A stretch of DNA of 37,753 nucleotides from a virus. Its lineage: Duplodnaviria > Heunggongvirae > Uroviricota > Caudoviricetes. The stretch lies in the IMG/VR virus record IMGVR_UViG_2687453319_000001. The stretch is one strand, 5' to 3'. The notes under the pieces are model-generated. The model made no database searches. It was not told the origin of the DNA and saw only the letters and a list, made by a program, of their open reading frames with translations. Position numbers and translations under genes: made by a program. This document shows, in pieces, positions 24,315 to 32,734 of the stretch (positions within the stretch are counted from its first letter, which is position 1; every line of letters starts with the position of its first letter).

Positions 24315-24625
24315 TATTCACTCCAGTACTTTTCCGGGCGGGCAATACCCGGACCACATTCCACGGTGTATTCCACCAGGTCTACGCCGAGGCGGGTCAG
24401 GTCAGCAAACCAGTCGCCAGAAGGTTTTTTCTCCAGATCAACCATTTTACGGTCAGCCAGATAATCCAGTTCGCGGCGCAGTTCCAGCGGTGTGGTGTCC
24501 GGGTAGATGGCACGGGACACATCCAGCAGCAGCGTCTCGCTGGCGGTGTAAGGGCGGGTCTTGTTCAGGGCAACCAGCAGACTCCAGCGCAGGGATTCGC
24601 GGCGTACCCGGGTAATATCGACCAT
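24314..24625 (-). CDS. Hypothetical protein (Mu gp26 position)
   Basis: 103-aa ORF, translationally coupled. Confidence 0.4.
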   Translation of the reverse strand: MVDITRVRRESLRWSLLVALNKTRPYTASETLLLDVSRAIYPDTTPLELRRELDYLADRKMVDLEKKPSGDWFADLTRLGVDLVEYTVECGPGIARPEKYWSE

Positions 24626-24951
24626 TATTGACCTCCGGTATTGCGGTACTGCTGTACCACTTCCAGTTTGTTATAAAGCGCGTCCAGTTTGGCCTCAATG
24701 ACTGTCTGGCCACGGATATAATCCTCTCGACGGACATAATTCAGCGGTAAATCCGCTTTAAATCGCATAAATTCTTTTTCCAGCTCGCCCCAGTTGGAGG
24801 CGGATTGTTGCAGGGCCTGTTCAAGGGAGGCGAATCGTGCCGCCTGGCGTTCTTCTGTTTTACTGAACAACCATTTGGCGAGCCCTCCCACAAACCCCAT
24901 GAAGGTGAGCAGAAAACTCACCACCGTCCAGAATTCAACCTGCAGTGTCAT
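24625..24951 (-). CDS. Small membrane protein (Mu gp25 position, lysis-associated candidate)
   Basis: 108 aa with one N-terminal TM segment (FWTVVSFLLTFMGFVGGLAKWLF). Confidence 0.45.
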   Translation of the reverse strand: MTLQVEFWTVVSFLLTFMGFVGGLAKWLFSKTEERQAARFASLEQALQQSASNWGELEKEFMRFKADLPLNYVRREDYIRGQTVIEAKLDALYNKLEVVQQYRNTGGQ

Positions 24952-25598
24952 TTCTGTAATCCTTCCCGTTCATCCAGTAACGCGTTTATCTGGTTCCGCC
25001 AGCGACGACATTGTCCTGCGTTGTCGATGATGTTGGCGAGAACGTCACGCTGGGAGACACCCGAATCGCGTAACCGGGTGTCAGTGGTTTCAGGTTGCCC
25101 GGTCGCTGTGCCAGAGCGGGTGCCAGCGGCGGCAACTGAGTCTGAATGACCGGTGTCGACGGATGCGTTGTCATATCCGAGTGCGGCGTTGTACTGGCGC
25201 ACGAAACCGCGAGTAAACACGCACTCAATGGGATGGCTCTTACCTTTTTCATCAATCCAGCGCTGTGTGACATCGTTAATTTGCCCCTGTAGTTGTTTAT
25301 TCCGGCTCTCCAGTTGAGCAATCTGCTCAAGATAACCGGCTTCAGCCCGCTGCCCGGCGGCCACCTGCTCCTGATACCGTCTGGCCCAGGCCCGCAGCGC
25401 AGCATTCTCAAGCGTTGCCTGCTCCGTTTTGTACGCGTCAAATGCTGACTGCAACTGACTGAGCGCGGTATCACCGTCACGCTTTGCAGAGTCATGACCA
25501 CTTCTGTATCCCATGGCATACAGGCCGACCAGAAAGGCATTGATAAGAATGGCCAGCAGAATGCCGCGCCACGGCAGCTTTTTAACCAGATGCCACAC
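24948..25598 (-). CDS. i-spanin (Rz-like); start uncertain
   Basis: N-terminal TM (ILLAILINAFLVGLYAMGY) then coiled-coil-rich periplasmic domain; follows the endolysin; a GTG at 25598 is a plausible start. Confidence 0.55.
   Translation of the reverse strand: MWHLVKKLPWRGILLAILINAFLVGLYAMGYRSGHDSAKRDGDTALSQLQSAFDAYKTEQATLENAALRAWARRYQEQVAAGQRAEAGYLEQIAQLESRNKQLQGQINDVTQRWIDEKGKSHPIECVFTRGFVRQYNAALGYDNASVDTGHSDSVAAAGTRSGTATGQPETTDTRLRDSGVSQRDVLANIIDNAGQCRRWRNQINALLDEREGLQK
24986..25252 (-). CDS. o-spanin (Rz1-like lipoprotein) embedded in the i-spanin gene in another frame
   Basis: MKKVRAIPLSACLLAVSCAS... with a lipobox-like LAVSC followed by a Pro/Thr-rich region; fully nested within the Rz-like ORF. 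Confidence 0.5.
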   Translation of the reverse strand: MKKVRAIPLSACLLAVSCASTTPHSDMTTHPSTPVIQTQLPPLAPALAQRPGNLKPLTPGYAIRVSPSVTFSPTSSTTQDNVVAGGTR

Positions 25599-26322
25599 AA
25601 CTGCTGCCTCCCCATGTGAGATATCGCGGTGCCAGTTCGCGCAGGATGCGCTGCGGATAATGGCGGTTCTCCCGCCAGCTGGCCGCATTGCGTCCGGCAT
25701 TCACCGTGGCGACATGTCCGAACCAGCGGGTGCTGTCCAGACCTTTCTGTGATGCAAGCCGCCTGTCCCGTTGTACCCAGCCCAGACCACCGTTATAGCC
25801 CGACAGTGTCATGGCCATACGCTCGCAGTCACTGGCGGCGCTGACACGCTGCCACAGCCAGCGGTCATAGCTGACCAGCGCCCGGATAGCCCATGCCGGA
25901 TTAAACGGCTCACGACTGCTCAGCATCGGTATCAACTGGCTTATCCAGTCGGCAGTGGCAGGCATGAACTGCGCCAGTCCCTGAGCGCCAGCCGGCGAGA
26001 TCGCATCAGGTCGCCAGCCGCTTTCCTGATGCAGTTGCGCGGCGAAATCGGCCACCGGCGCAGACAGTCCCCATTCAAGCCGGGCATTACGGATCACATC
26101 ATCGCGATACTGCAGCGCAGCCTGCGGAGGTTGTGCTGCGCATGCCTGGCTAAAAAAGCCGCCACACCAGAGCAACATTGCGACAAAGAATACCCATGCC
26201 ATATGAACCAGAAAGGTCCCGGCGCGGACTGACAGGCGTTCGGTTCTGATGAAGACCCGAAAGGCTTCGAAAGCCAGTTTCAGGGACATGCATACAATCC
26301 AGGTGATCTGCGGCCAGTTCAT
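25582..26322 (-). CDS. Endolysin: lytic transglycosylase (SLT domain) with N-terminal hydrophobic/signal region
   Basis: SLT catalytic region ...AQLHQESGWRPDAISPAGAQGLAQFMPATADWI...; hydrophobic N-terminus (second Met at 26202 starts a signal-peptide-like segment MAWVFFVAMLLWCGGFFSQACAAQ). Confidence 0.85.
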   Translation of the reverse strand: MNWPQITWIVCMSLKLAFEAFRVFIRTERLSVRAGTFLVHMAWVFFVAMLLWCGGFFSQACAAQPPQAALQYRDDVIRNARLEWGLSAPVADFAAQLHQESGWRPDAISPAGAQGLAQFMPATADWISQLIPMLSSREPFNPAWAIRALVSYDRWLWQRVSAASDCERMAMTLSGYNGGLGWVQRDRRLASQKGLDSTRWFGHVATVNAGRNAASWRENRHYPQRILRELAPRYLTWGGSSCVASG

Positions 26323-26324
26323 GA

Positions 26325-26675
26325 TTAAAGCCCCATCGCAACAGCCAGGCAGACCGCTGCAACAATCAGTGCACGGCGGATTAACGCAGCAGAAAACACC
26401 AGGTGAAGGCCGGTCTGTACCGGGAAACGCCCTTCAGCCATCAGCCTGTCGTCATGTTTCAGGTACTGACCGGGACGGGCTTTGGGGAAGAGCGAACGGT
26501 CAAGCCAGTAACCCAGCACTGCTGCCAGCGTGATGAGTGCCAGCTTGTAGATCACAACAGGCAGCTGCTGTGGTGAGACCAGAGCGATGGTGCCCAGCAA
26601 CAGCACTGAGGTCAGCAGCCAGCCGCTGAGGCGAGGTTTTTTAACAGGGGGAATGAATTTTTTCAGGTTTTTCAT
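26325..26675 (-). CDS. Membrane protein, holin candidate
   Basis: Likely start at 26675 with AAGGAG RBS; about three predicted TM segments; first gene of the lysis cassette. Confidence 0.45.
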   Translation of the reverse strand: MKNLKKFIPPVKKPRLSGWLLTSVLLLGTIALVSPQQLPVVIYKLALITLAAVLGYWLDRSLFPKARPGQYLKHDDRLMAEGRFPVQTGLHLVFSAALIRRALIVAAVCLAVAMGL

Positions 26676-26805
26676 GTGTGTCTCCTTATCTGGTGGAGAC
26701 AGCATCACAAATACAGGGCGCGAAGGATTTTAAAGCGCGTTAAGAGAGCCGGGGATACGGGATGTGCAGGATAAACGATGAATTATTCACAGAGGAGAAT
26801 ACGAT

Positions 26806-27282
26806 ATGACGCACACACTGAATCCGGTCATCACTGTCACTGTGTCCGGTCCTGTGGGCAGCGGTAAAAGTTACGTACTGGCGCGGATAGAAGAGATGGT
26901 GAAACAGGAACTCGGAAACAGCGTCATTGTCGATGCTGCTGACGTGGAGAATGAGCGCCGTATGAATGGCGAAGATCTGACGACCTGGCAGAAGCCACGG
27001 GGTGGCACAGTGATCAGGCTGGAGGAATACACGGGACAGGGCCTGTTGTCATACGGCGAGGAGCGTATCTGTCGGACGAATGAGCTGCTGGATGTTATAT
27101 GCCCCACGGGCCGGCAACCCTGGATACTGCCCGATGCACTGCATGCCACCATTGCGGCACTGATGACAGTTTACGATCAGGAGCTGCTCATGAAGGAGTT
27201 ACGTAAACTCACCGGTCAGCCAACAGAATGTTGTTCGTCTCCGAAGTACGGCAAACAGGAAAACGCCCCGGATAATCCTTAA
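26806..27282 (+). CDS. Small P-loop NTPase of unknown function (accessory gene)
   Basis: 158 aa, AGGAG RBS; Walker A GPVGSGKS and possible Walker B VIVDAAD; only + strand gene in the late half; convergent with the repressor operon. Confidence 0.5.
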   Translation: MTHTLNPVITVTVSGPVGSGKSYVLARIEEMVKQELGNSVIVDAADVENERRMNGEDLTTWQKPRGGTVIRLEEYTGQGLLSYGEERICRTNELLDVICPTGRQPWILPDALHATIAALMTVYDQELLMKELRKLTGQPTECCSSPKYGKQENAPDNP

Positions 27283-27301
27283 GATACCTCCTGAACAGAA
27301 A

Positions 27302-27317
27302 CAGCCCTGAAGGGCTG
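27302..27317 (-). terminator. Hairpin (CAGCCC-tgaa-GGGCTG) between convergent genes; putative terminator of the repressor operon
   Basis: Perfect 6-bp stem directly after the stop of the 27320..27910 gene, T-rich tract adjacent on the minus strand. Confidence 0.35.
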
Positions 27318-27319
27318 CA

Positions 27320-27910
27320 CTAAAAAAAGAAGTGTATTATTGCCCAAACAGCTATAACGATGATTCCCAGCCCAAGAGCCGATTCTAACTTATCTTTGGC
27401 AGTCATTTTTACTGTTGTAGCGGGCGCAGGTAAGTCTTGCTGCTGTGGATTTTCTGTTAGTTGTTTACGAGAAGAAACATCGCCCCTGTTAGTTTGCTTC
27501 ATGTTGATTACAGATGCGTTATGGGCATTATCAGCAGCAATTGACTGAAGTTTTACAAAAGTTTTTGAATCTGTTTTAGCCAGAAGTAACCTATTTCCCG
27601 TAAACATTGCCTTAAAAGTGATAGTTTTTTTCGTCTTGTCCGCCGCACCAAGCAAACCTCCAATGACCAACCCTGCACCACCAAAGATTAATCCACCAAG
27701 CAAACCTGCGCCTGCCGCCTTACCTATACGGCTTTCCTCTTCACTATCCGCAAGTTCAATCGATAAAAGCTCTTCTTTCAGATTTAATACAATATTTTCA
27801 GGAAAGCCTTGTTTTGGTTTTTTGGCAAACACGATGGTACCGAACCCCATGCTTGCCCACCCTTTAGGAAAACTTCCTGCGATAACCTGAATCCCTGCCA
27901 TGTTCATCAC
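27320..27910 (-). CDS. Accessory membrane protein Y: glycine-zipper TM plus C-terminal TM (candidate exclusion/abortive-infection effector)
   Basis: 196 aa (start possibly at 27901, RBS AAGGTG); GKAAGAGLLGGLIFGGAGLVIGGLLGA glycine-zipper segment and C-terminal LGLGIIVIAVWAIIHFFF; last gene of the repressor operon. Confidence 0.5.
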   Translation of the reverse strand: MMNMAGIQVIAGSFPKGWASMGFGTIVFAKKPKQGFPENIVLNLKEELLSIELADSEEESRIGKAAGAGLLGGLIFGGAGLVIGGLLGAADKTKKTITFKAMFTGNRLLLAKTDSKTFVKLQSIAADNAHNASVINMKQTNRGDVSSRKQLTENPQQQDLPAPATTVKMTAKDKLESALGLGIIVIAVWAIIHFFF

Positions 27911-27991
27911 CTTTTACATTAAAATTTCAGAACGCAGCATGATGCCGCCTTTGTCTTTTTTCTGATCCCATGGTAATTCAGCTGTTATTTT

Positions 27992-28978
27992 CTATTTAAG
28001 AATAAAACGGTATTTACTGTCAGGAGTGCTTTGCTGATCAAGTAGCAGTGAACGACATGGAGCAGTCAAAACCCGAGCATAACTACCATCAGGGCTTATG
28101 TTAATGTAACAAACCTTGCCCTTAACACTATAATTTTCGGGGACGGATGCCTTTGCTGATACAGTAAATTTAAGGGTATGCCAGCCCGTTTTTTGCTTGT
28201 AGCTTGAAACCGAATGGAAATCATCTGAGTACTTATTTAACCCTGGAAACATGCTGCGCAGTGCGGGGATGGAATCTTCTATTATTTTATCGTTGGTTTT
28301 AATGTTAAAAACGCTGGTTTCAGTAGAAGCTACTGCTTTGGCATTTCCCCATTTACCAGCGAACACAATCATTCCCACGAAAAATATTGCTACAAGAACT
28401 AACACTCCCCCCAACACTACTACATGAGGCTTCCGGCTTCTGGTTGGTACAGTTGCGACTGATTTTGCACCGCTTTCCGATGGAGGTGATAGAGTTTTAC
28501 TCTCATCACGAATATTCAGCAGATCATCAAAATAACCAAACACAGCCTGCAACTGCTCTTTGTCTAGGCCTTTAAGATGGGTTGTACCGAAATGCTTCAG
28601 ACAGTATCTGTCACGGTCAAGACGATACCCAGGGTCAGTAAGCGCCATTATTTTGCTGACCAGAAGATTACAGTCCTTCATATTCTGGATCTGTTGTGCA
28701 TATCTCTGAAGGATCTCAACCGCACCATGATAATCAGCCGCAGTCATTTCATTAACTGTTTTGGTATTAAGTTTCGTGTGGATCGTCATCCATAGCTCGC
28801 GCTTACTTTCCCCCAGATCAACCAATTCATCCATCAATCTGTGTAAATCGCGTTTTTGCAGCAACGAAATTGGTTGCTGGGCCGAAGGAAGTATGTCAGC
28901 AGAATAGTTATGAATGGTAACATCACCGCTGACAACGTTACCCACATCCCCGTTAACTGTTTGCTTCTCTTTACTCAT
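27992..28978 (-). CDS. Accessory protein X: cytoplasmic N-domain, single TM, periplasmic C-domain (candidate sensor of a Rex-like module)
   Basis: 328 aa; start overlaps the repressor stop; TM HVVVLGGVLVLVAIFFVGMIVFAG; N-terminal motif GDVGNVVSGDVTI resembles the repressor C-terminal HGDVLGNVIKGNVTI. Confidence 0.5.
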   Translation of the reverse strand: MSKEKQTVNGDVGNVVSGDVTIHNYSADILPSAQQPISLLQKRDLHRLMDELVDLGESKRELWMTIHTKLNTKTVNEMTAADYHGAVEILQRYAQQIQNMKDCNLLVSKIMALTDPGYRLDRDRYCLKHFGTTHLKGLDKEQLQAVFGYFDDLLNIRDESKTLSPPSESGAKSVATVPTRSRKPHVVVLGGVLVLVAIFFVGMIVFAGKWGNAKAVASTETSVFNIKTNDKIIEDSIPALRSMFPGLNKYSDDFHSVSSYKQKTGWHTLKFTVSAKASVPENYSVKGKVCYINISPDGSYARVLTAPCRSLLLDQQSTPDSKYRFILK

Positions 28979-29400
28979 CTTCTCTTGGTATTTTTGTTCA
29001 TTATTCCACCTGTTCCTATGGTTACGTTACCTTTGATAACATTCCCCAGAACATCTCCATGAATAACCTGTTCCGCCCGTTCTCTGGAGGAGCCAGTAGT
29101 CAAGGCCGACAAAACTGAACCTTTGACCTGTAATGGTGCCTGCCGGTAGTGCTGCAGTAACTCCATTTCATCACGTGATAAAGTTATACCTGATGACTCC
29201 CCGGTAAGAATGAACTGTACATTGGCCCCAATTCTTGCAAAGGCTGCAAGTAACTCACCTCCGGGAACAGCAACCCCTCGTTCATATTTCCCCCACATTT
29301 CTCTTGAAACGCCACAAAGGGCTGCTACTTCAGCCTGCTTGAGTGATAACCGCGAACGCTCAGCTTTGAACCGCGACGCGCAAAGAGAATCAAAATTCAC
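28975..29400 (-). CDS. Prophage repressor (HTH, XRE/Cro-C1 family); start uncertain (GTG 29400 or ATG 29436)
   Basis: HTH segment LSLKQAEVAALCGVSREMWGKYERG; divergent from the early operon; the ORF-track ATG at 29436 lies inside the -10 of the early promoter, so GTG at 29400 (GAGG RBS) is more plausible. Confidence 0.8.
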   Translation of the reverse strand: MNFDSLCASRFKAERSRLSLKQAEVAALCGVSREMWGKYERGVAVPGGELLAAFARIGANVQFILTGESSGITLSRDEMELLQHYRQAPLQVKGSVLSALTTGSSRERAEQVIHGDVLGNVIKGNVTIGTGGIMNKNTKRR

Positions 29401-29410
29401 ATAAACCTCA

Positions 29411-29439
29411 TTGACAATGAGAACAATAGTTCTCATAAT
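29411..29439 (+). promoter_or_regulatory. Early promoter Pe (TTGACA-17 bp-CATAAT) with a 20-bp perfect palindromic operator (ATGAGAACAATAGTTCTCAT, 29417-29436) in the spacer
   Basis: Consensus -35, 17-bp spacer, near-consensus -10, about 45 bp upstream of the first early gene; palindrome fills the spacer. Confidence 0.6.
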
Positions 29440-29486
29440 CTATCACATATAAAACAAACATCATTGCATCAACAAAGGAGACAACA

Positions 29487-29675
29487 ATGACTTCCGAACA
29501 AGTTAAAAATCTCTTCCGTCAGCGTGGTATCACGTTTACCCGCTGGGCCGAAGAACACGGCTACAGCCGCAATGAGGTCTATCGTGTTCTCAATGGACAG
29601 ACCAAAGCTCGTTACGGCAAAGCCCATGAAATTGCCGTAAAACTGGGATTAAAACCCACGTCAAATGCGGCATAA
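29487..29675 (+). CDS. Small DNA-binding early regulator (Ner/Cro-like)
   Basis: 62 aa, AAGGAG RBS; first gene of the early operon divergent from the repressor, as Mu ner. Confidence 0.55.
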   Translation: MTSEQVKNLFRQRGITFTRWAEEHGYSRNEVYRVLNGQTKARYGKAHEIAVKLGLKPTSNAA

Positions 29676-29727
29676 ATTTTCCACATATGCAACAGGTTAT
29701 CACATATTGCAAAAATGGAAATGTGAC

Positions 29728-30036
29728 ATGAGTAAAGTAAATATTTCCAGTTCTGGGACCCGCATCCTACGTGTACTCAAAGCTCTACGCGGTCATGCTC
29801 TGAACGGTGTTTCTAACGGTGAACTGGCATCAGCCCTGGGGGAGTCCCCGGCGAATATCAATCGAGCACTTAATACCCTTATTGAAGAGGGACTGGCCAT
29901 GAAATTAGAGAACGGACGTTTCGCACCGGGAATCCAGTTACTACAGATCGCCATGGCTCACAGTCACGAGATGGCGCGTGCACAGGATCGTATTAACGAA
30001 ATCAACCAACGAGTTATTTCAGGTAGTCGTTTGTAA
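29728..30036 (+). CDS. Winged-helix transcriptional regulator (IclR-like HTH domain only)
   Basis: TRILRVLKALRGHALNGVSNGELASALGESPANINRALNTLIEEGLAMKLENGRF resembles the IclR N-terminal HTH. Confidence 0.5.
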   Translation: MSKVNISSSGTRILRVLKALRGHALNGVSNGELASALGESPANINRALNTLIEEGLAMKLENGRFAPGIQLLQIAMAHSHEMARAQDRINEINQRVISGSRL

Positions 30037-30046
30037 GGAGTAATCA

Positions 30047-30961
30047 ATGGGACGCACCAAATCACCCGTTAACACTGAACTGAATGTTGAGGTTCCGCTG
30101 TCAGATAACATCAATGTCAATTTGAACGCTATGACACAGCATCGCATGGAAATTATGCAGCAGTTTGGTGATGGACTGCCTTATGAACGTGATCGCATTG
30201 TTCACGAAGCACGTTTTTATATGGCGCAGAGTGCTGAATCTATGCTGGAAGCGGGTAAGCGGCTGATCATCTTAAAAGAAAATGAGCCACACGGTGATTT
30301 TACAAACATTTTAGAAAATGAACTCGGACTTGCACCACAAGTTGCTCGCCGCATGATGCAAGCCAGTATGAAGTTTTTGGGAGAAGGTGATGAGCCAACA
30401 AAACGCTCAACGTTGAGCGTTTTGGGGAAAGCCAAACTGTACGACCTGATGGTTCTGGATAATGAAGAACTTGATGAATTGGCCGACGGCGGCACAGTTG
30501 CCGGCCTGACGCTTGACGACGTTGATCGCATGTCAGTACGTGAATTGCGTCAGGCCCTGCGCGAAGCGCGCGAAACCAACGCAGCACAACAGCGCGTACT
30601 CGCCGACAAAAATGAAAAAATAGATTCACTCTCCACCAGACTGGAGAAGAAATCCCGTATTCAGCCGCCTGAGCCTGATGAGGAGGTTAAGAAGCTGCGG
30701 GCGGAAGTAACAGCATTAGCGGTTGAGGCGGAATCTGCTATCGCCGTCCGACTGTCCAGCGCTTTTGAGACGCTGTGCGCATATTGTGCTGAAAACATGA
30801 TTGATACCCCCAGAGACTTCATGGCAGGCCTGGTCTGTCAACTGGAAAGCACAGCGCGTAGCCTGCGCTCCACATTTGACCTGCCGGACGAGCCAACAGG
30901 CAATGCAGCGCCTTCATGGCTGACTGAGCCGACGCCACAGATTAACGGGCTGGAGGCATAA
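30047..30961 (+). CDS. Hypothetical early protein
   Basis: 304 aa, AAGGAG RBS; immediately upstream of the transposase; no recognised motif. Confidence 0.45.
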   Translation: MGRTKSPVNTELNVEVPLSDNINVNLNAMTQHRMEIMQQFGDGLPYERDRIVHEARFYMAQSAESMLEAGKRLIILKENEPHGDFTNILENELGLAPQVARRMMQASMKFLGEGDEPTKRSTLSVLGKAKLYDLMVLDNEELDELADGGTVAGLTLDDVDRMSVRELRQALREARETNAAQQRVLADKNEKIDSLSTRLEKKSRIQPPEPDEEVKKLRAEVTALAVEAESAIAVRLSSAFETLCAYCAENMIDTPRDFMAGLVCQLESTARSLRSTFDLPDEPTGNAAPSWLTEPTPQINGLEA

Positions 30962-30964
30962 CCA

Positions 30965-32734
30965 ATGAATGCTGCCCTGACTGAACGACTGGTTTATGTC
31001 GCCCGCGCGGCACGTGACGCGGGGCATGGTAAACGCGGTGCAATATACGACGCTGCCTGTGCTGAACTTGGCATGTCCCGCGCCACTCTGCTGCGCAGGC
31101 TGAAGGAGGTCTCTGTGACTGATAAACGCAAAAAACGCGCCGATGCCGGGCGCAGCGCCCTGACCCGCGACGAAGCCGCGCTGATATCTGCCACACTGCG
31201 TGAGGCCACCCGCAAGAACGGTAAGCGTCTCTATTCCATCGCAGATGCAGTGGAAACCCTGCGGGCTAACGGCTTTATCACCGCAGGCAGAACAGATGAA
31301 ACCACCAGTGAGTTTTTCCCGTTGTCTGAAGATGCCATCAGCCGTGCTCTGCGTAACTATGGCCTGCACCCGGAACAACTGGATGCCCCTGCACCACATA
31401 CCGAAGTGGCCAGTCTGCATCCCAATCATGTCTGGCAGATTGACGCCTCACTCTGCACGCTTTACTACCTGAGCAATGGACATAAAGGGCTGCAGGTGAT
31501 GGACAGCGCGAAGTTCTACAAGAACAAGCCCGCTAACCTTGCCCGTATCGCCAGTGACCGCGTGTGGAGTTACGAGATTACCGACCATGCCAGCGGCTGG
31601 ATTTACGTTGAGTATGTGACGGGCGCGGAATCAGGTGAGAACCTGTGTTCTGTGCTTATCAACGCCATGCAGGAGCGTGGCGGCGCAGACGTGCTGCACG
31701 GCGTGCCGAAAATACTCTATCTCGACCCCGGCTCGGCAAACACCGCGGGTATGACGAAAAACATGTGCCGCTCACTGGGCATCGACCTGATAGCGCACAA
31801 GCCGCATAACGCCCGCGCCACCGGACAGGTGGAAAAGGCGCGTGACATTATCGAACGCAAGCTGGAGCCGGGTCTGAAGTTCCGGCCGGTTCACAGTCTG
31901 GAAGAACTCAACGCGCTGGCCGCGAAATGGCGCAGCCACTTTAACGCCACGGCTGTTCACAGCCGCCACGGTAAAACCCGCACGGATATCTGGCTGAAGA
32001 TTACTGCTGAGCAGCTGAAAAAAGCGCCTTCCGTTGAGGTATGTCGTGAACTGGCTGTGGCGGCACCAGAACTCCGCAAAGTCACGCCAAAACTTCGTGT
32101 CTCGTTCCGGGGCACTGAATTTGACGTATCAACGGTACCGGGCGTACTGGTTGGTGAAAAACTGATGATTACCCGTAACCCATGGCGCAGCGATGTGGCA
32201 CAGGTGGTTCTGACCGGTGAGGACGGCCACGAGACGTTCTTCCTGGTCGAAGAGGTCAGAAAGAACGAGTTTGGCTTTGCTGAAGGCGCGGCGGTATTTG
32301 GCGAAAGTTACAAAGCCCTGCCGGAAACCCCGGCACAGATGGCGGCAAAAGAAACCGAAGCGCTGGTTACCGGTACAGACAACGCCGCAGATGCAGCCGC
32401 CGCACGCAAGGCGAAGGCGCTGCCGTTCGGCGGGCGGCTTGACCCGTATAAACATATCGACGACACCACACTTCCGGCCTATATGCCGAAGCGTGGTCAG
32501 GCCTCTGACGTACGCGGGCCGCGCACTGAACAACGTCCCATGACTCATGTGGAGGCCGCGAAAGCCCTGCGCGATAAGTTCAGCGCCGACGGCCTTACCT
32601 GGACGCCGGAACATTACCGCCAGTTAACGGCACAGTACCCGGACGGCGTACCGGAAGCCGCACTGGATGAAGTCATGGCCACGCTGACCACACCGGCCCG
32701 CAGCAGTGTTATCAGCATTGTTAACGGCAACTGA
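30965..32734 (+). CDS. DDE transposase (Mu A-like function; retroviral-integrase/rve-type core)
   Basis: 589 aa; core motifs HVWQIDAS and LYLDPGSAN consistent with a DDE catalytic domain; followed by the ATPase partner. Confidence 0.85.
   Translation: MNAALTERLVYVARAARDAGHGKRGAIYDAACAELGMSRATLLRRLKEVSVTDKRKKRADAGRSALTRDEAALISATLREATRKNGKRLYSIADAVETLRANGFITAGRTDETTSEFFPLSEDAISRALRNYGLHPEQLDAPAPHTEVASLHPNHVWQIDASLCTLYYLSNGHKGLQVMDSAKFYKNKPANLARIASDRVWSYEITDHASGWIYVEYVTGAESGENLCSVLINAMQERGGADVLHGVPKILYLDPGSANTAGMTKNMCRSLGIDLIAHKPHNARATGQVEKARDIIERKLEPGLKFRPVHSLEELNALAAKWRSHFNATAVHSRHGKTRTDIWLKITAEQLKKAPSVEVCRELAVAAPELRKVTPKLRVSFRGTEFDVSTVPGVLVGEKLMITRNPWRSDVAQVVLTGEDGHETFFLVEEVRKNEFGFAEGAAVFGESYKALPETPAQMAAKETEALVTGTDNAADAAAARKAKALPFGGRLDPYKHIDDTTLPAYMPKRGQASDVRGPRTEQRPMTHVEAAKALRDKFSADGLTWTPEHYRQLTAQYPDGVPEAALDEVMATLTTPARSSVISIVNGN

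Follow-up and report, generated by a model that had tools for sequence, protein, structure and literature searches.

Do the genes that follow the repressor of this prophage form an exclusion system of the lambda Rex type, or do they serve the repressor itself? The locus lies in the IMG/VR virus record IMGVR_UViG_2687453319_000001, a stretch of 37,753 nucleotides (nt) that we refer to as the window and that is a BcepMu-like (Bcepmuvirus-type) transposable prophage of Escherichia coli. Four open reading frames (ORFs) are concerned: the repressor gene c, the genes X and Y behind it, and a small P-loop ORF on the opposite strand (coordinates in Table 1). An earlier reading of this DNA, here called the original prediction, had taken them for a candidate Rex-like exclusion or defence module. 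We found that c and X carry matching terminal motifs, that this match recurs pair by pair in Mu-like and P2-like phages, and that X and Y are separable. The region is probably the module for lysogeny (immunity) of this prophage, together with cargo.

Matching terminal motifs in repressor c and membrane protein X

The C-terminal tail of c (QVIHGDVLGNVIKGNVTIG...) is similar to the N-terminus of X (QTVNGDVGNVVSGDVTIH...). Aligned to X residues 3-23, the tail reaches a local BLOSUM62 score of 52 over 21 residues (z ~8), a value attained by none of 2000 shuffled controls (mean 19.9, standard deviation 3.9, maximum 40). The motif spans ~20-25 residues, is rich in Gly, Val, Asn and Gln, and is predicted to be unstructured. 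Among 18 homologues of X it is invariant, while the neighbouring linker varies. Only 40% of the identical motif residues are encoded by the same codon and the nucleotide identity of the motifs is 54%, so that a recent duplication or gene conversion is an unlikely origin of the match, which is therefore kept at the protein level.

The match extends well beyond the window. We assembled a set of 56 loci, comprising the window, seven loci from contig look-ups and 48 from IMG/VR, where the search was run with the closer subgroups of the X-like family. In nearly all of them, the gene directly upstream of the X-like gene encodes a helix-turn-helix (HTH) repressor of ~140-170 amino acids (aa), and the C-terminus of this repressor carries the same motif as the N-terminus of its partner. 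The arrangement was also found in Yersinia, Serratia and metagenomic Mu-like contigs, and in 49 loci of IMG/VR. Across ~50 distinct pairs from Mu-like and P2-like phages, cognate partners had a mean score of 47.4 versus 33.5 for non-cognate combinations, and the observed cognate sum was not attained in any of 10000 partner permutations. A score of at least 36 was found for ~45 further pairs. Common descent of the loci does not by itself explain why a repressor tail is more similar to the N-terminus of its own partner than to that of another.

Two classes of motif could be distinguished. Class A follows the pattern QxFHGxVGQxxxGD[IV]xN...GhxhNhG, of which the window carries a variant, and class B, which is rich in charged residues, follows [VI]xVxGxxN[RK]xAGRD[YF]xE. 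Class A tails were paired with class A partners in 31 cases, with eight more recognised by eye outside the regular expression, and class B tails with class B partners in eight cases, with two more; mixed pairs numbered zero in either direction. The motif is conserved in repressors linked to X and absent from a Citrobacter repressor without X. Based on this concordance, we propose that c and X may interact physically through the shared motif, and that X would thereby modulate the repressor at the membrane.

Pairs of the same type in characterised phages

Pairs of the c-X type are also present in characterised phages. Repressor c is homologous to BcepMu gp17 (38.5% identity, tblastn E-value of 5e-12), and BcepMu gp18 matches the X-like profile (95%, E-value of 3e-8). 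The C-terminus of gp17 reads ...QVFHGSVGQAVKVEGNLDQQGISFFGKGKKRK and the N-terminus of gp18 reads ...KQEFNKPVGQAIQAG..., with VAGRDIVNVN within gp18. BcepMu thus has a homologous repressor and a motif-bearing membrane protein in the early-lysis position of a Mu-like phage. Equivalent pairs are gp46/gp47 of phiE255, ORF35/ORF33 of RSA1 and gp39/gp38 of AP3, the last two being class A pairs in P2-like phages. Like c, the repressors of this type are XRE-type proteins with a class A C-terminal motif and a basic tail, and like X, the membrane protein encoded next, by an overlapping or closely spaced gene, combines a motif at its N-terminus with a Flk_N-like helical region; the location between early and lysis genes is shared as well. 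They differ in the periplasmic part, which is a small Cys-containing tail in gp18, ORF33 and gp38 and a lipoprotein-family domain in X. In Ps59, the motif of a class B pair is fused to a different, non-Flk_N membrane protein, which favours contact between motif and motif over contact between motif and domain.

The c-X type of repressor and membrane partner with matched motifs is therefore widespread, occurring in BcepMu, phiE255, RSA1, AP3 and hundreds of prophages of E. coli, Burkholderia, Ralstonia and Pseudomonas, and it is undescribed in the literature that we searched. Titles and abstract openings yielded no repressor with a motif-matched partner and nothing on gp18; gp18, ORF33 and gp38 are named 'membrane protein' only, in sequence records. 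The words 'HTH' and 'repressor' are absent from the amyloid-motif literature that was checked in full text.

Several observations weigh against a c-X interaction as the function of the motif. Both the partner-permutation and the Fisher tests take the loci as independent, with shared ancestry uncorrected. X-like genes follow a motif-less protein at L011, L049, L054 and L055, and structure searches with the domains of X gave no functional hint for any of them. In the Ralstonia phage RSA1, the insertion sequence (IS) transposase gene ORF34 is inserted exactly between the repressor gene ORF35 and the motif-matched ORF33 (L067:3080-4300), so the coupling of the pair can be broken in a viable phage. 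The P2-like E. coli phage 520873 (NC_049344.1) encodes a repressor with a class B tail, gp04, and between gp04 and the integrase gene we identified an unannotated class B X-like gene (L064:3284-3896) that a frameshift or a sequencing error has divided into two ORFs (55 and 115 aa). The IS in RSA1 and the apparent frameshift in 520873 imply that X is dispensable for phage viability. Finally, in Pseudomonas phage Komp_PAO1_1 a class A repressor tail is followed by a motif-less signal-peptide protein (L068:2360-3505), from which the motif may serve primarily for self-association of the repressor.

Three of the loci with a motif-less upstream protein (L049, L054 and L055) belong to an X-like subgroup that also includes P0059, P0069, P0073, P0101 and P0114. 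Its members have a longer N-terminal extension in which only a 'GN.NINFGTQ' segment is left, and their upstream protein is a different one without a matching tail. This subgroup may represent a third or a degenerate pairing type.

The exposed position of the motifs also raises the question of whether c and X need to touch at all. A third party, such as a protease or an adaptor, might recognise both motifs, in which case X would compete or act as a decoy and so set the turnover of the repressor. There is precedent in phage Mu, where the repressor tail governs proteolysis and is recognised by ClpXP. That both motifs are terminal, exposed and predicted to be disordered would be consistent with such recognition, as would the motif-bearing repressor without X in Komp_PAO1_1. 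However, two very different classes occur within a single host species (class A in the window, class B in E. coli phage 520873), and the partners are always concordant, which is hard to reconcile with one host factor and easy to reconcile with homotypic pairing. We therefore consider a shared third party distinctly unlikely and retain direct pairing of the motifs as the preferred explanation.

Domain architecture of X

The original prediction had given X a cytoplasmic domain, one transmembrane (TM) helix and a periplasmic domain, with a start codon overlapping the repressor stop. All of this agrees with our analysis, as the ATGA overlap is present and the AlphaFold2 (AF2) model places a helical domain, a TM helix and an alpha/beta domain in this order. 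The overlap suggests that translation of X is coupled to that of c, and basic residues N-terminal to the TM helix indicate an N-in/C-out orientation. Residues 1-30, including the motif, are disordered in the monomer (predicted local distance difference test score, pLDDT, ~41).

The helical domain of X is related to Flk. X matched the NCBIfam Flk model (NF007987) with an E-value of 2.9e-12, at 46.6 bits where the equivalog cut-off is 353, and with matching residues 19-147 only. Precomputed matches to Flk_N (PF27202) exist for homologues of X, and hhalign aligned the helical domain to E. coli K-12 Flk (96.5%, E-value of 7e-10). These profile comparisons identify the domain as a homologue of the Flk N-terminal domain. 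Flk is a cytoplasmic, tail-anchored protein and keeps the flagellar type III secretion apparatus in its early mode (PMC13344023). The homologous domain of X is likewise helical, cytoplasmic and anchored at the inner membrane by a TM helix, and acting as a protein-protein regulator at the membrane is a feature of Flk (PMC13344023). Flk differs from X in lacking the N-terminal motif and the periplasmic domain, in having its domain duplicated, and in being encoded on the chromosome beside pdxB, unlinked to a repressor. By analogy, a Flk_N-like domain can serve as a membrane-tethered regulator, yet it gives X no function assignment.

The periplasmic domain has other relatives. BLASTP matched it to the prophage lipoprotein KP12_283 (E-value of 5e-17), and lipoproteins of this type are encoded downstream of repressors in the same slot. 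An exhaustive profile search with X through 1.8 billion representatives retrieved only 114 relatives, which fall into three groups. The first consists of tail-anchored proteins of ~200 aa with the N-terminal motif, the Flk_N-like helical domain and a C-terminal TM helix; the second has the periplasmic domain alone and consists mostly of lipoproteins; the third, at the weak end of the list, is chromosomal Flk. Searching GenBank phages with X by tblastn gave partial-domain matches only, and a sequence search of the PDB with profiles of X and Y found no match.

These relatives bear on the possibility that X is mainly a superinfection-exclusion protein, with a periplasmic domain that prevents DNA from entering or hides a receptor, and with a motif that is only an element for oligomerisation or stability. 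HK97 gp15, Cor, Llp and Ltp are cases of superinfection exclusion by a block of DNA entry or by receptor masking. A role of this kind would be in line with the homology of the periplasmic domain to prophage lipoproteins in the same slot, and with the predicted expression of X in the lysogen. Most X-like relatives, however, are the tail-anchored proteins of ~200 aa, which lack a periplasmic domain but have retained the motif, the Flk_N-like domain and their linkage to a repressor. The conserved core function is therefore cytoplasmic. Exclusion would also leave the class concordance with the repressor tail unexplained, and as the main role of X it seems rather unlikely to us.

A proposed role for the c-X pair in the control of lysogeny

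We next considered how a repressor and a membrane protein with paired motifs might work together. Repressor c probably acts at an imperfect palindrome that overlaps the rightward early promoter and that, from its sequence and position, is a candidate c operator. The called start of c, ATG 29436, sits within this palindrome; GTG 29400, which gives a protein of 141 aa, is the likelier start, as it is preceded by a GAGG Shine-Dalgarno sequence and corresponds to the RefSeq annotation in NZ_CP027447. Through translational coupling, X would be made in a fixed ratio with c, and it would take up an N-in/C-out orientation in the inner membrane. Beta-strand augmentation or stacking would then pair the motif of c with that of X, so that X tethers, sequesters or switches part of the repressor at the membrane. 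Such pairing could set or sense the state of lysogeny or induction for a repressor without a RecA-cleavable domain. The periplasmic domain of X, apparently gained in this E. coli lineage, might provide a sensor input or a surface for superinfection exclusion.

No S24 peptidase domain was found in the repressors with Pfam, and an accessory controlling protein is therefore a reasonable requirement. Small phage proteins that aggregate or sequester repressors are known, namely the antirepressors RstC of CTXphi and Qtip of VP882. X resembles these in being small and phage-encoded and in its potential to sequester, and thereby inactivate, a non-SOS repressor. RstC and Qtip are, in contrast, soluble, separately regulated and without a motif shared with the repressor, whereas X is membrane-anchored, predicted to be co-translated with c, and motif-matched.

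The pairing could also be of the amyloid type. In amyloid signalling pairs, such as fungal HET-S/NWD2, bacterial Bell/NLR (BASS) and E. coli Bab/Agp, two collinear, adjacent genes encode proteins in which the C-terminal motif of the upstream protein equals the N-terminal motif of the downstream one, the motif being ~20-25 residues long, rich in Gly, Asn, Gln and Val, and without structure in the monomer. This architecture was recently shown for Bab/Agp of E. coli, a prophage-borne system. With 21 residues and a score of 52, the c/X motif pair exceeds the published criterion for amyloid motif pairs (length of at least 15, score of at least 40). Foci assays for amyloid motifs have been described (bioRxiv 10.1101/2024.11.07.622273). 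There are clear differences from these systems, as c is a DNA-binding repressor and not a death effector, X is small, membrane-anchored and Flk_N-like where those pairs have a sensor of the NLR/STAND or TPR kind, and class B motifs are rich in charged residues. If c and X did form an amyloid-like (prion-like) signalling pair controlling the prophage, a signal at the membrane or in the periplasm would cause X to oligomerise, and its motifs would nucleate a beta-stacked fold. This fold would template the motif on the repressor tail and draw c into an inactive aggregate, with irreversible commitment to lytic development as the outcome. We consider this amyloid-like variant unlikely; if correct, it would carry amyloid signalling beyond NLR/death-effector pairs into the transcriptional control of lysogeny and explain the induction of many non-SOS Mu-like and P2-like prophages.

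Whichever form the pairing takes, many Mu-like and P2-like prophages have a repressor without a RecA-cleavable domain, and their exit from lysogeny is largely unexplained. The class-specific, matched terminal motifs provide a concrete handle on how such prophages leave lysogeny. If the motifs mediate binding or templating, a genetic switch would be linked to the cell envelope in a way that is new, and motif-matched signalling of the amyloid type would gain a new context.

Y and the cargo slot

Having linked X to the repressor, we determined how Y relates to the pair. Genes c, X and Y are predicted to form one leftward transcription unit, as originally proposed, given the ATGA overlap, the lack of a terminator before Y and the terminator-like hairpin after it. 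The glycine zipper and the C-terminal TM helix that had been described for Y are present. Its ATG start at 27901, 90 nt after X, has a Shine-Dalgarno sequence ahead of it. Precomputed matches to PH_gly_zipper (PF27000), marked weak, exist for close homologues of Y, and the order of strands and helices fits a PH-like fold; the AF2 model had a pLDDT of 36 and was unusable for fold searches. No match to Y was found by tblastn among GenBank phages. Its homologues are few and confined to Enterobacterales, except for a protein from Burkholderia that has this domain in fusion with SHOCT. Two variants of Y (P0030 and P0031) have in-frame deletions of 11 and 16 residues within the glycine-zipper repeat, which suggests slippage in a repetitive GGT/GGC-rich stretch and tolerance of variable zipper length.

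The two genes behind the repressor do not depend on each other. Among the collected loci, L003, L004 and L012 have c-X without Y. The gene order is c, X and Dam in Serratia and in a metagenomic relative, and c, X, an unrelated 249-aa TM protein and Dam in Yersinia. Complete E. coli genomes contained c-X-Y in 97 cases and c-X without Y in ~30, where X is followed by a 203-aa protein and DUF2441 or by nothing. Conversely, Y follows a different, Phage_CI_repr-type repressor in Citrobacter and relatives (L006-L009), where X is missing. X and Y are therefore separable and not an obligate pair.

This separability decides against a Rex-like arrangement, in which X would sense infection and activate Y as a depolarising membrane effector, both being expressed from the repressor operon. 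As in lambda cI-rexA-rexB, accessory membrane genes are predicted from sequence to be co-transcribed with the repressor in the lysogen, and the position of X and Y behind the repressor, their membrane character and the lack of matches to other functions would all suit an exclusion system. The glycine zipper of Y is of a kind seen in pore-forming proteins. Yet Serratia, Yersinia and the ~30 E. coli genomes have X but no Y, the unrelated repressor of Citrobacter and relatives is followed by Y with no X, and X co-varies with c and not with Y. Moreover, the 90-nt gap between X and Y contains a module boundary exactly at the ribosome-binding site of Y. Homology to Rex was not detected with PADLOC, whose library presumably includes RexAB models. 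RexB is polytopic, whereas Y has a glycine zipper and one TM helix. At E-values of up to 1, none of the four proteins (c, X, Y and the P-loop protein) matched a PADLOC model beyond generic HTH and P-loop noise, in agreement with the lack of a described defence family in the original prediction. We thus find a Rex-like X-Y system highly improbable. The sensor and membrane-effector logic borrowed from lambda does not hold for X, which is the conserved cognate partner of the repressor. What stands of the proposed exclusion or defence module is the accessory position with predicted expression in the lysogen, and Y as a plausible defence gene in its cargo.

The slot behind c-X, between the immunity and lysis genes, is hypervariable and holds different genes in different relatives. 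In a metagenomic Mu-like relative (L010:6342-7921), the slot between c-X and the holin gene contains PDC-M18A (E-value of 3.9e-135) and PDC-M18B (E-value of 2.2e-71), a two-gene PADLOC defence candidate, and in BcepMu the slot is occupied by gp19, which bears a weak resemblance to a 2TM effector. With PDC-M18A and PDC-M18B in the slot, the position behind BcepMu-like immunity genes behaves as a cargo or defence hotspot, and a defence or exclusion role for Y therefore remains plausible. By its position, Y is an independent cargo gene (moron) with predicted expression in the lysogen, and its product would most likely be an exclusion or abortive membrane protein that acts alone. The slot could be mined for exclusion and defence genes, of which Y is one candidate.

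Prophage setting and the P-loop ORF

Searching all ORFs with Pfam, NCBIfam, PHROGs and PADLOC yielded the HTH of c, the weak Flk match of X and PHROGs without function, and an Rfam scan of 26000-30200 found no match. The four ORFs are present as they had been called, and they lie between leftward late and rightward early genes (Table 1).

Table 1. Features of the c-X-Y region and its surroundings in the window.
Feature	Position	Strand	Remarks
Late and lysis genes		leftward	Among them holin gene (26325-26708), SLT endolysin, Rz
P-loop ORF	26806-27282	+	158 aa; Walker A GPVGSGKS at 26848-26871; convergent (tail-to-tail) with Y
Intrinsic terminator-like hairpin	27301-27318	-	GC-rich with T-run; directly 3' of Y stop
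Y, tail-anchored protein	27320-27901	-	193 aa; RefSeq start; 196-aa GTG start less likely
Y C-terminal TM helix, residues ~171-193	~27323-27391	-	
Y glycine zipper, residues ~60-87	~27641-27724	-	Interrupts PH-like beta domain
X, bitopic inner-membrane protein	27992-28978	-	328 aa; ATG overlaps c stop in ATGA
X periplasmic alpha/beta domain, residues 221-328	27995-28318	-	pLDDT >90; invariant Cys290 and Cys308
X TM helix, residues ~186-207	28358-28423	-	Sequence reading; AF2 helix 188-207
X cytoplasmic Flk_N-like helical domain, residues ~31-162	28493-28888	-	AF2 pLDDT ~90
X N-terminal motif, residues 6-25	28904-28963	-	QTVNGDVGNVVSGDVTIHNY; class A; matches c tail
c, XRE-type HTH immunity repressor	28975-29436	-	153 aa as called; HTH_31/HTH_3 in Pfam
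c C-terminal motif, residues 123-145	29002-29070	-	QVIHGDVLGNVIKGNVTIGTGGI; basic tail follows; matches X N-terminus
Imperfect palindrome	29410-29443	.	ATTGACAATGAGAAC / GTTCTCATAATCTAT; overlaps rightward early promoter
Rightward early promoter	29411-29439	+	TTGACA-17-CATAAT
Early genes		rightward	ner-like gene (29487-29675), IclR-type HTH gene, DUF3102 gene
Early genes, continued		rightward	Transposase gene (30965-32734), MuB-like ATPase, Gam, Mor

The c-X-Y region has a GC content of 43-46% compared to 55-59% in the remaining prophage and thus forms a low-GC island. The 3-kb stretch with the four ORFs has a 100% identical copy in 97 of 5426 complete E. coli genomes. In DNA comparisons, the flanks of the region matched Escherichia phage PhiKM with 98.7% identity on the left (24317-27270) and 81.7% on the right (29435-30851), and such comparisons place module boundaries at ~26746, 27270, ~27915 and 29435. 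PhiKM itself is missing the c-X-Y cassette and has a full-length P-loop gene, a small ORF and a Dam methylase gene there instead (L002:2490-4943), all on the early strand, with no repressor annotated at that place.

The P-loop ORF had been counted as part of the module, which our comparisons do not support. It matches phrog_3787 over only positions 1-157 of 242, and its DNA is homologous to the full-length PhiKM gene only up to 27270, a point 12 nt short of the stop codon of the ORF. The full-length gene (242 aa) was found in 483 E. coli genomes, some of which have c-X too, and the short form goes together with the Y-containing cassette. By this sequence evidence, the P-loop ORF is a 3'-truncated remnant and a bystander outside the c-X-Y module, its 3' end having been lost when the Y-containing cassette was exchanged. 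It is encoded convergently to Y, as the text of the original prediction had it, and not divergently, as in its title. The RefSeq label 'ABC transporter ATPase' for this gene is unsupported, as the NCBIfam ABC-ATPase matches are weak and cover only the N-terminal ~60 residues with Walker A of a truncated ORF.

In the genome of E. coli M9682-C1 (NZ_CP024275), the Mor end of the prophage adjoins a gspL gene without its N-terminus (L001:31217-32107). The type II secretion operon was therefore the target of transposition by this Mu-like element.

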